Shown in pieces: positions 7,485 through 9,431 of a DNA stretch of 11,099 nucleotides (position 1 is the stretch's first letter; each line of letters begins with the position of its first letter). The stretch is from a virus (taxonomy: Duplodnaviria > Heunggongvirae > Uroviricota > Caudoviricetes), in the IMG/VR virus record IMGVR_UViG_2541047953_000001, positions 1 to 11,099 of that record. One strand, written 5' to 3'. Under the pieces are notes generated by a model, which saw only the letters and a list, made by a program, of their open reading frames with translations, did no database searches and had not been told where the DNA came from. The position numbers were made by a program, and so were the translations under genes.

Positions 7485-9431
7485 GCGACTGATGCTGCAG
7501 ACTCAGCACGCGCAGCCAGCACGTCAGCCGGACAGGCCGCGACGTCGGCTCAGGAGGCTTTTTCCAGCGCAGGAACGGCATCAGCAAAAGCCTCTGAGGC
7601 ATCAAAAAGTGCTGCCGCTGCAGAGTCCTCAAAAAGCGCGGCGGCTACCAGTGCCGATGCGGCGAAAACGTCAGAAACGAATGCGGCAGCGTCACAACAA
7701 TCAGCAGCCACTTCTGCATCCACCGCGACCACGAAAGCGTCAGAAGCTGCCTCCTCAGCCCGGGATGCGTCGGCCTCAAAAGAGGCGGCAAAATCATCAG
7801 AAACGAACGCATCATCAAGCGCCAGTAGTGCCGCTTCCTCGGCAACGGCGGCAGGAAATTCCGCGAAGGCGGCAAAGACGTCTGAGACAAACGCTAAGTC
7901 CTCTGAAACGGCAGCGGAACAGAGTGCCTCAGCTGCGGCAGGCTCAAAAACAGCGGCTGCATCATCTGCCAGTGCCGCGTCAACAAGTGCCGGGCAGGCC
8001 TCAGCCAGTGCCACCGCCGCCGGAAAATCGGCAGAAAGTGCTGCATCGTCCGCTTCAACAGCCACAACGAAGGCTGGCGAAGCCGCTGTACAGGCCAGCA
8101 CAGCAGCGAGGTCTGCTTCCGCAGCGAAGACATCCGAGACGAACGCGAAAGCGTCGGAAACCAGCGCAGAATCCTCAAAAACGGCTGCCGCATCGTCCGC
8201 CAGTTCGGCGGCGTCATCGGCATCATCTGCGTCTGCTTCAAAAGATGAGGCGACCAGACAAGCGTCCGCAGCGAAGGGCAGCGCCACGACAGCATCCACG
8301 AAGGCGACAGAGGCAGCTGGCAGTGCGACGGCGGCAGCACAGAGCAAAAGTACGGCGGAATCCGCGGCAACGCGCGCCGAGACAGCGGCAAAACGGGCAG
8401 AGGATATTGCATCCGCCGTGGCGCTTGAGGATGCGAGCACGACGAAAAAGGGGATAGTACAGCTCAGCAGTGCGACCAACAGCACTTCCGAGTCACAGGC
8501 GGCAACGCCAAAAGCCGTTAAGGCCGCGTATGACCTGGCTAACGGGAAATACACCGCACAGGATGCAACGACAGCACAGAAAGGGATAATCCAGCTAAGC
8601 AGCGCGACCAACAGCACATCTGAAACGCTTGCCGCGACACCAAAGGCAGTAAAAACAGCCTATGACAATGCTGAGAAACGTCTGCAGAAAGATCAGAACG
8701 GTGCGGATATCCCTGGCAAAGACACCTTTACGAAAAATATTGGTGCCTGCCGTGCCTTCGGTGGGTCAGTAAGCACAACAACAGGAAACTGGACGACTGC
8801 ACAGTTTATCGAGTGGCTGGATTCTCAGGGAGCATTTAACCATCCCTACTGGATGTGCAAGGGTTCCTGGTCTTATGGCAATAATAAAATCATTACTGAT
8901 ACTGACTGCGGTAATATTCATCTCGCCGGAGCTGTCATTGAAGTAATGGGGATAAAGTCAGCGATGACGATCCGCATTACCACACCGACCACCTCCACTG
9001 GTGGTGGAACAACTAACGCCCAGTTTACCTATATTAATCACGGAACAGATTATTCACCTGGCTGGCGAAGGGACTATAACTCCAGAAATAAGCCAACGGC
9101 ATCAGAGATCGGGGCGTTACCGTCAGGTGGAACAGCAGTATCATCAGTTAATCTGGCTTCAAAAGGTCGGGTACAACAGGAGCCGAATGGCTGGAAGACC
9201 GTCACCACACAGTTCTACATCCAGGAATTCAGTGAGTATATTGCGCCACTGCAGGATGCTGTAGATCTGGAAATCGCAACGGAGGAAGAAAGATCGTTGC
9301 TGGAGGCATGGAATAAATATCGGGTATTGTTGAATCGAGTTGATACATCAGTAGCTCTGGGTATGAAGCTGTTTGTAACTCATGTTACAGTAACAGTCAT
9401 TACTATCTCGAAGGTGCAAAATGTATATTGA
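7485..9431 (+). pseudogene. Side tail fibre (Stf-like) remnant lacking its 5' end and start codon: Ala/Ser/Thr-rich shaft, two tail-fibre repeat units, a distal domain, ending in a Tfa-like C-terminal motif
   Basis: A third frame, open from about 7365, encodes [25 protein letters not shown]...KTSETNA...[35 protein letters not shown]..., which parallels the lambda Stf shaft. By my manual translation no ATG, GTG or TTG occurs in this frame before the GTG at 8418, where the track ORF starts. The 3' end carries [37 protein letters not shown], the conserved C-terminal signature of tail fibre assembly (Tfa) proteins. Beyond about 9352 the sequence becomes AT-rich and the frame ends at 9429-9431. 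Confidence 0.6.
8448..8666 (+). repeat. Tandem duplication of a ~29-codon tail-fibre repeat unit (KGI[VI][22 protein letters not shown]), period 132 bp
   Basis: Copy 1 at 8448-8534 and copy 2 at 8580-8666 are nearly identical at protein level and highly similar at DNA level. This is a coding repeat within the fibre ORF. Confidence 0.6.

Follow-up and report, generated by a model that had tools for sequence, protein, structure and literature searches.

How a side tail fibre gene (stf) and a tail fibre assembly gene (tfa), which lie as separate adjacent genes of 1,023 and 194 codons in the intact lambdoid prophage of E. coli O43 RM10042, came to share one reading frame is the question raised by the virus record IMGVR_UViG_2541047953_000001, positions 1 to 11,099 of which were analysed here as a single stretch of DNA (the window). 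On its plus strand, a frame open from 7476 to the TGA at 9429–9431 carries stf sequence followed by 46 Tfa residues, without either end of either gene. The original prediction, made for 8690–9431, read this as a deletion fusing stf to the 3′ part of tfa or as a fibre tip with a built-in chaperone-like module. We conclude, with a probability of roughly 93%, that 8690–9431 is the 3′ end of a non-functional pseudogene remnant made by prophage decay. The fusion itself is an ordinary deletion scar, one more among those of decaying prophages, with nothing new in it and of little import; the site at which the fibre gene was broken may matter more.

The frame is made up of the following segments, among which the three peptides quoted in the original prediction are placed.

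7477–9173, plus strand: internal stf fragment, codons 142–707 of 1,023, 99.9% identical to L002 5078–6774 and L129 41404–43100
8418–9431, plus strand: mechanically called open reading frame (ORF) of 337 amino acids (aa) with a GTG start, a chimera that runs from stf fragment through remnant leader and Tfa fragment to read-through tail
8445–8552 and 8577–8684, plus strand: two Phage_fiber_2 shaft repeats (PF03406, E 1.2e-38)
8664–9137, plus strand: Mu protein S-like mid-fibre domain (PDB 8ju3 residues 177–334, E ~1e-73)
8781–8888, plus strand: quoted 36-residue peptide of the Cys/Trp domain
9172–9173, plus strand: deletion junction, a TA common to both parents, with 2,362 bp missing relative to the intact prophage
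9174–9218, plus strand: leader of the old tfa remnant, 15 codons without Tfa homology, outside the Pfam and BLASTP Tfa matches
9219–9350, plus strand: Tfa C-terminal helical-domain fragment, 46 residues truncated at both ends, defined by Caudo_TAP and by alignment to the intact tfa
9240–9350, plus strand: quoted 37-residue Tfa-motif peptide
9351–9431, plus strand: read-through tail of 26 residues and TGA stop, non-Tfa, past an older mosaic break at 9349/9350
9354–9428, plus strand: quoted 25-residue peptide of the terminal tail, directly followed by the TGA

All three peptides lie in the one frame, so that a continuous reading from stf into the Tfa C-terminal motif was correctly described, as was the unrelated tail at its end. 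A Pfam scan of the whole fused frame returned nothing besides Phage_fiber_2 and Caudo_TAP (PF02413), both of which are far above chance. Caudo_TAP scored 60.1 bits against a cut-off of 22.1 (E 3.3e-16); its match covers only profile positions ~75–121 of 131.

The Tfa part was compared with the intact gene. Positions 9219–9350 show 87% DNA identity to the intact tfa at L002 8133–8264, and 39 of 46 residues (85%) are identical to Tfa residues 137–182 of 194. Tfa homology within 8690–9431 is confined to this segment. A complete Tfa within 8860–9431, the outcome against which the original prediction had weighed itself, was therefore rejected, only these 46 residues being aligned. The two-part architecture of Tfa is incomplete: upstream of the fragment lie fibre sequence and the remnant leader, and downstream lies unrelated read-through. 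In Tfa proteins, fibre binding falls to a variable N-terminal beta-sandwich and trimerisation to conserved C-terminal helices (PMC9608196); the fibre-binding part is therefore absent here.

The fibre's own tfa (L002 7725–8309) lies wholly inside the deleted 2,362 bp, and the piece that was kept is a different, older remnant. Its 15-codon leader already precedes it in the intact reference and is thus older than the deletion; in L002 and L129 this leader follows ...AWYASI within a short ORF of its own, MLPQHSDIEIAWYASIQQEPNGW... Thousands of E. coli genomes, K-12 with its DLP12 prophage among them, have the same remnant as a separate, unfused pseudogene, and in other strains the unfused remnant ORF (P0003) ends with the same read-through tail. 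An older mosaic break is found at 9349/9350, where the canonical Tfa goes on with ...VDTSTAPDIEWP (DTSTAPDIEWP) and the remnant enters unrelated sequence up to the stop. At the DNA level, the canonical tfa reads ...GATACATCA/ACTGCACCGGAT (TAPDIEWP..., the slash marking the break) and the remnant reads GTAGCTCTGG... instead. Matches in other genomes are split at this break, many covering 9172–9350 only and others 9349 onward only, and K-12 diverges near 9325, with appY in place of the hydrolase gene found in the window.

Chimeric ORFs ending in this tfa remnant also occur in other strains, and at least five were seen (P0002, P0004, P0005, P0013, P0057). Their left parts come from terminase gpA, from a fibre tip or from sequence of unrelated origin, a variety that is expected from random deletions ending just upstream of the remnant, and the breakpoints lie at most ~15 codons upstream of the Tfa homology (window 9130–9220). 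This clustering owes something to ascertainment, since a stop codon stands a short way upstream. At least one of the joins, that in P0005 (...YEMRV/AWYAS), looks like another TA join.

For the fibre part, the intact Stf homologue (L002 4654–7725) provided the comparison. Pfam finds phage_tail_N, Phage_fiber_2 and Collar in the intact protein, and of these the window frame keeps Phage_fiber_2 only. The window frame, starting only at codon 142, does not include the phage_tail_N domain (PF08400, E 1.4e-71 in intact Stf), and Collar, at residues 798–845, is missing because the stf part stops at residue 707. Sequence searches against the PDB showed that intact Stf is a three-way mosaic of 9e7m-like, Mu S-like and T4 gp37-like parts, distributed as follows.

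Stf residues 1–94: N-terminus of PDB 9e7m ('Tail fiber protein'), E 1.3e-51, not in the window
Stf residues 492–568: Mu protein S repeats (8ju3), in the window
Stf residues 538–695: Mu protein S mid-fibre domain (8ju3), E ~1e-73, in the window
Stf residues 794–1023: T4 gp37 receptor-binding tip (2xgf), E 1e-86, not in the window

The Cys/Trp-containing domain, which had been taken for the distal end of the fibre, is in fact this Mu S-like mid-fibre domain at residues 538–695 of 1,023. Its assignment as a fibre tip was rejected, the real T4 gp37-like tip having been deleted. Likewise, the stretch upstream of IAPLQDA, for which a tip domain or a Tfa N-terminal domain had been considered, is neither of these and consists of the Mu S-like domain and the remnant leader. 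In Mu protein S (8ju3, 5yvq), the counterpart of the window's Cys/Trp domain is residues 177–334 and that of the preceding repeats is residues 99–175; Mu S then continues to its own variable tip, whereas the Stf type of the window continues to a T4 gp37-like tip (2xgf).

A side observation concerns the start of the Mu S-like module, at ~8727–8752. The fibre sequence FTKNIGAC aligns there with FIQNLGLQ of Mu S, a motif encoded by the Gin/Pin crossover site, and the e14 pix counterpart of this motif is NLGLGE. Only ~7 of the 12 bases of one invertase half-site are kept in the window DNA, which looks like a decayed relic of an inversion site.

The fused frame lies in a degraded DLP12-type lambdoid prophage at the DLP12 site of E. 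coli chromosomes. The backbone at that site runs quuD, porin, essD, rrrD, rzpD, bor, ybcV, ybcW, ylcI, nohD ... alpha/beta hydrolase, ompT, envY. The site is identified by the DLP12 backbone on the left and by ompT, envY, ybcH and nfrA on the right, as seen in near-identical loci and in the context of L004; argU and intD fall beyond the window and could be observed in the reference L129 only. As the intact reference, the apparently intact lambdoid prophage at the same chromosomal site of RM10042 was used, which has argU-intD, a full set of head and tail genes, stf (1,023 aa) and tfa (194 aa), followed after tfa by a small hypothetical ORF, a methyltransferase gene on the other strand, a 5′-truncated tfa pseudogene and the hydrolase gene. 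Relative to this reference, the window falls into four pieces separated by three deletions.

746–6973: left backbone to nohD; at the next junction, nohD/gpJ, 15,105 bp are missing at ACC(C/G)GG
6968–6973, plus strand: junction of nohD (terminase small subunit) with gpJ, out of frame
6968–7480: internal gpJ piece; at the next junction, gpJ/stf, 3,847 bp are missing at CAAC
7477–7480, plus strand: junction of the internal gpJ fragment with stf codon 142, out of frame
7477–9173: stf codons 142–707, 99.9% identity; at the next junction, between stf and the sequence upstream of the tfa remnant, 2,362 bp are missing at TA
9172–11099: sequence from upstream of the tfa remnant onward, equal to L002 9135–11062 at 99.9%

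In total, 21.3 kb of sequence with head, tail and fibre genes is gone, and it was through the first two deletions that the prophage lost every head and tail gene. All that is left of gpJ is an internal fragment of 513 bp, between the stf fragment and nohD, which is without its last few codons. The third deletion joined stf codon 707 to a point 46 nucleotides (nt) upstream of the older tfa fragment, and both parents can be read directly at the join: the junction is ...GGTCGGG-TA-CAACAGG..., the fibre parent ...GGTCGGG-TA-ACCGCG... and the remnant parent ...GCTTCGA-TA-CAACAGG... Lost with it were the last 316 stf codons (the collar and the T4 gp37-like tip), the complete tfa of the fibre, the small ORF and the methyltransferase gene. 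Of the two earlier readings, the deletion that fuses stf to a piece of tfa is therefore borne out in kind; the piece itself comes not from the fibre's own tfa but from the older remnant 2.4 kb downstream.

The frames of stf and the remnant join because the TA occupies codon positions 2–3 in both parents (GTA and ATA). This match of frames is an accident with a chance of about one in three and is consistent with chance. The ORF is begun at the GTG at 8418, its first possible start codon, as neither ATG nor GTG nor TTG occurs in frame in the Ala/Ser-rich fibre sequence before it; no Shine–Dalgarno sequence is visible before this GTG, and the scanned stretch 7300–9700 showed no promoter-like site upstream of it. 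The product would have no attachment domain, no tip, no fibre-binding Tfa domain, no proper start and no tail genes to serve, which argues for a non-functional remnant. The most probable course of events is that a decaying DLP12-type prophage was stripped of its head, tail and fibre genes by three deletions, and that the third joined stf codon 707, via the shared TA, to a tfa fragment already truncated at both ends, presumably by short-homology illegitimate recombination at a preferred site.

Other explanations of the frame were weighed against this one. An assembly chimera might be suspected from the absence of the junction in all 5,426 RefSeq complete E. coli genomes. However, the identical 337-aa ORF is present on at least 11 contigs, and all eight of those fetched, from three NCBI assemblies and five Logan runs, show the identical junction within the same gene context, being 99.9–100% identical to the window over the locus, so that an artefact was rejected and retains next to no probability. 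Equally negligible is the idea that stf and a complete adjacent tfa merged through a lost stop codon or a sequencing frameshift: the shared frame speaks for it and nothing else does, whereas the Tfa residues present number only 46, 2,362 bp of the intact locus are missing at the join, and the junction is identical in the eight fetched contigs. A functional fibre, or fibre fragment, in which the helical Tfa piece acts in cis as a foldon, an intramolecular chaperone or a trimerisation module was also considered. The frame is open across the junction, the piece kept comes from the conserved helical domain proposed to trimerise, and the same stf base is the site of another in-frame fusion with tfa (P0001, described below). 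However, the N-terminal attachment domain, the receptor-binding tip, the fibre-binding Tfa domain and the last Tfa residues are all missing, the fibre frame has no start codon before 8418 and no promoter-like site in the stretch scanned, and the prophage has no tail genes. Even the helical Tfa domain is only partial, and the tip on which it would act is absent. Moreover, other strains fuse unrelated genes at the exact junction site in any frame. The concept has a likeness in fibres with Peptidase_S74-type C-terminal intramolecular chaperones, e.g., K1F endosialidase and T5 pb1, in which a chaperone module likewise stands in cis at the C-terminus; those modules belong to an unrelated family, follow a complete tip and are cleaved off. 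No Peptidase_S74-type domain, nor any other known intramolecular chaperone family, was found in the Pfam scan of the fused frame. The reading as a tip with a built-in chaperone is thus largely refuted already and is left with a very small probability.

Several points weigh against regarding the ORF as a mere decay remnant. It may be expressed from the GTG at 8418 or by read-through, and the carriers, being 99.9–100% identical, offer no test of selection on the ORF. The stf breakpoint is to all appearance a strong hot spot, and the deletion may not be a purely random microhomology event. Finally, another prophage (L012/P0001) carries an independent fusion of stf to tfa, likewise in frame and at the same stf base. 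Something beyond chance might be suspected from this, although two in-frame results in three do not reach significance. With the pseudogene reading preferred nonetheless, the practical consequence is that the ORF should be annotated as a pseudogene; NCBI records name it 'phage tail fiber protein' or 'tail fiber assembly protein', and such names in public databases are misleading.

The stf endpoint of the deletion proved to be recurrent. Window 9172–9173 corresponds to L002 6773–6774 and L129 43099–43100, with the sequence ...AAAAGGTCGGG-TA-ACCGCGCTGAC..., and ~20 independent deletions break at this same TA, retaining either the left or the right side, with the kept side preserved to the nucleotide in every event. 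Besides the window, the left side is retained in L012 (CP043752), another prophage at a different chromosomal locus, which adjoins a DinI-family gene and an RF3-type (prfC-like) gene. At L012 8001–8483, stf is cut at the identical base and continues in-frame with the C-terminal 90 residues (half) of tfa to the natural stop; the resulting fusion protein P0001, ...SKGRV/SPEGEFQKWNGTAW..., is annotated as a 'tail fiber assembly protein'. In L018, the same stf site is joined to DNA beyond the prophage with a 7-nt overlap, TAGCCGC. A further candidate for left-side retention, L123, was rejected as an unrelated chance match to a 17-mer. The right side is retained in K-12 Qin, at nohA/stfQ', and elsewhere with gpA, ynfO, a parB-like gene or an upstream part of stf as the partner.

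The right-side events were surveyed by scanning IMG/VR, JGI metagenomes and GTDB genomes with the 28-mer just right of the TA. The left flank was long enough at 181 loci. The canonical fibre flank is seen at 145 of these, and the other 36 (among L020–L206), with ~20 unrelated left flanks, all join at the same TA position. Only one other breakpoint falls in the 31 nt left of the TA, and the rest of stf has scattered singleton breakpoints. Every mappable TA event is a collinear deletion, and no inversion was found among them. The opposite ends of the deletions vary widely, falling anywhere between ynfO and the lom-stf spacer in a late-gene region of more than 20 kb; nearly all of the native partner sites that were checked have TA at the crossover, and about half are GGNTA. 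The frames of the TA fusions are arbitrary, long in-frame fusions having resulted from only 3 of 16 other deletions at the same stf site. The TA lies 12 codons past the end of the Mu S homology, near the boundary between the Mu S-like and T4 gp37-like modules, so that the switch from one to the other within Stf falls within 12 codons of the breakpoint.

A more far-reaching reading, to which we give a low probability, takes this TA for a genuine site-preferring deletion hot spot of lambdoid prophages. The searchable literature yielded no account of such a site in stf, Qin or Rac. A mobile cassette that duplicates TA on insertion was considered and rejected, the flanks being directly adjacent in 94 of 94 cases, as deletions and not insertions require. 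At the site itself, a search for a hairpin or cruciform was negative, the DNA folding no better than shuffled sequences (z = 0.71). Lambda cosN, Ter, IHF, integron and restriction sites were considered as possible likenesses of the site, none of which seemed convincing.

Our best guess for the TA deletions is short-homology illegitimate recombination, i.e., slippage or annealing of GGNTA-type direct repeats, heated by something invisible in the sequence. The alternative is that a site-specific enzyme made the junction, either a Pin/Gin serine invertase acting on a secondary site or another nuclease or recombinase with GGN-TA preference. The ~20 independent rearrangements at one TA, the partner sites with TA at the crossover and about half of GGNTA type, and the side kept to the nucleotide would all suit such an enzyme, and exchange of tail-fibre modules has been attributed to fibre-associated invertases (PMC3945230). 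In addition, 8 of the 11 events that could be assessed have a pin gene downstream. However, this link is not significant when compared with 18 of 37 canonical loci, and a tie between the deletions and a downstream pin gene was rejected; no pin lies near the window locus, L012 or L018. The purely collinear deletions are also more in keeping with slippage or annealing of short direct repeats than with the action of a recombinase that has a palindromic TA core.

A crossover site was defined as 26 bp made up of two 12-bp half-sites in inverted orientation (...AAACC NN GGTTT...), accompanied by another copy that is itself inverted, the consensus being what we take to be that of Pin/Gin/Cin/Hin, checked against e14 only. 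The threshold of 14 of 18 consensus positions was not reached anywhere in the window, L001, L002, L012–L014, L016 or L017, and the hot-spot sequence has no inverted second copy. As a control, the real e14 pix sites, ...CCCAAACC-AA-CGTTT..., were recovered, and they look different from the stf site. A Pin/Gin-type crossover site at the TA was rejected on these grounds, and a site-specific enzyme is accordingly improbable as the maker of the junction, though less remote than the rival explanations of the fusion itself. If a dedicated nick, a covalent protein–DNA intermediate or a recombinase were nevertheless at work here, it would be an unrecognised driver of prophage decay and of fibre module exchange, and a specific mechanism would bear on how defective prophages such as Qin and DLP12 were shaped and on the reshuffling of fibre modules.

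Two K-12 prophages offer close parallels. DLP12 of K-12 shares the chromosomal site and the backbone from quuD to nohD (quuD, porin, essD, rrrD, rzpD, bor, ybcV, ybcW, ylcI, nohD), and its second tfa pseudogene is the counterpart of the Tfa piece in the window, at 96% identity over window 9172–9325. Both also contain deletion products that fuse a late-gene fragment to a tfa fragment. In K-12, however, terminase gpA is joined to the first tfa, and the methyltransferase and the second remnant remain separate, giving a right end of gpA'/'tfa, methyltransferase pseudogene and second 'tfa, then appY-ompT (presumably the genes named aaaD/tfaD/ybcY/tfaX). The window has lost both the first tfa and the methyltransferase gene and carries the second remnant fused to an stf fragment. 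What lies to the right of the remnant also differs: it is the alpha/beta hydrolase gene in the window, whereas the K-12 remnant sits between the methyltransferase pseudogene and appY. The nohA/stfQ' junction of Qin has the same TA in the same stf type as one deletion endpoint; Qin keeps the right of the TA (tip, tfaQ, pinQ), joined to nohA, and the window keeps the left, joined to the tfa remnant.

Some neighbouring features of the window remain to be described.

9615–11099, minus strand: alpha/beta hydrolase gene, 494 aa, always found to the right of the tfa remnant in DLP12-site prophages of this kind
9559–9594, minus strand: perfect hairpin with a 14-bp stem and a T-rich tail, downstream of the alpha/beta hydrolase gene in an AT-rich spacer

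The hairpin is likely the terminator of the alpha/beta hydrolase gene, which converges on the fused ORF. An Rfam scan of the window gave no match to an RNA family. On the minus strand, an antisense ORF of 355 aa (7550–8617) lies inside the Ala/Ser-rich region of the fibre shaft; in related contigs, it is called as a gene of 245–265 aa without a Pfam match, and it is almost certainly spurious, a product of the GC-rich repetitive coding sequence opposite. Among the closest full-length relatives, H1–H3 match the window from 746 and H4–H6 match from 1, which points to a further mosaic boundary near 745, upstream of the quuD-like gene.

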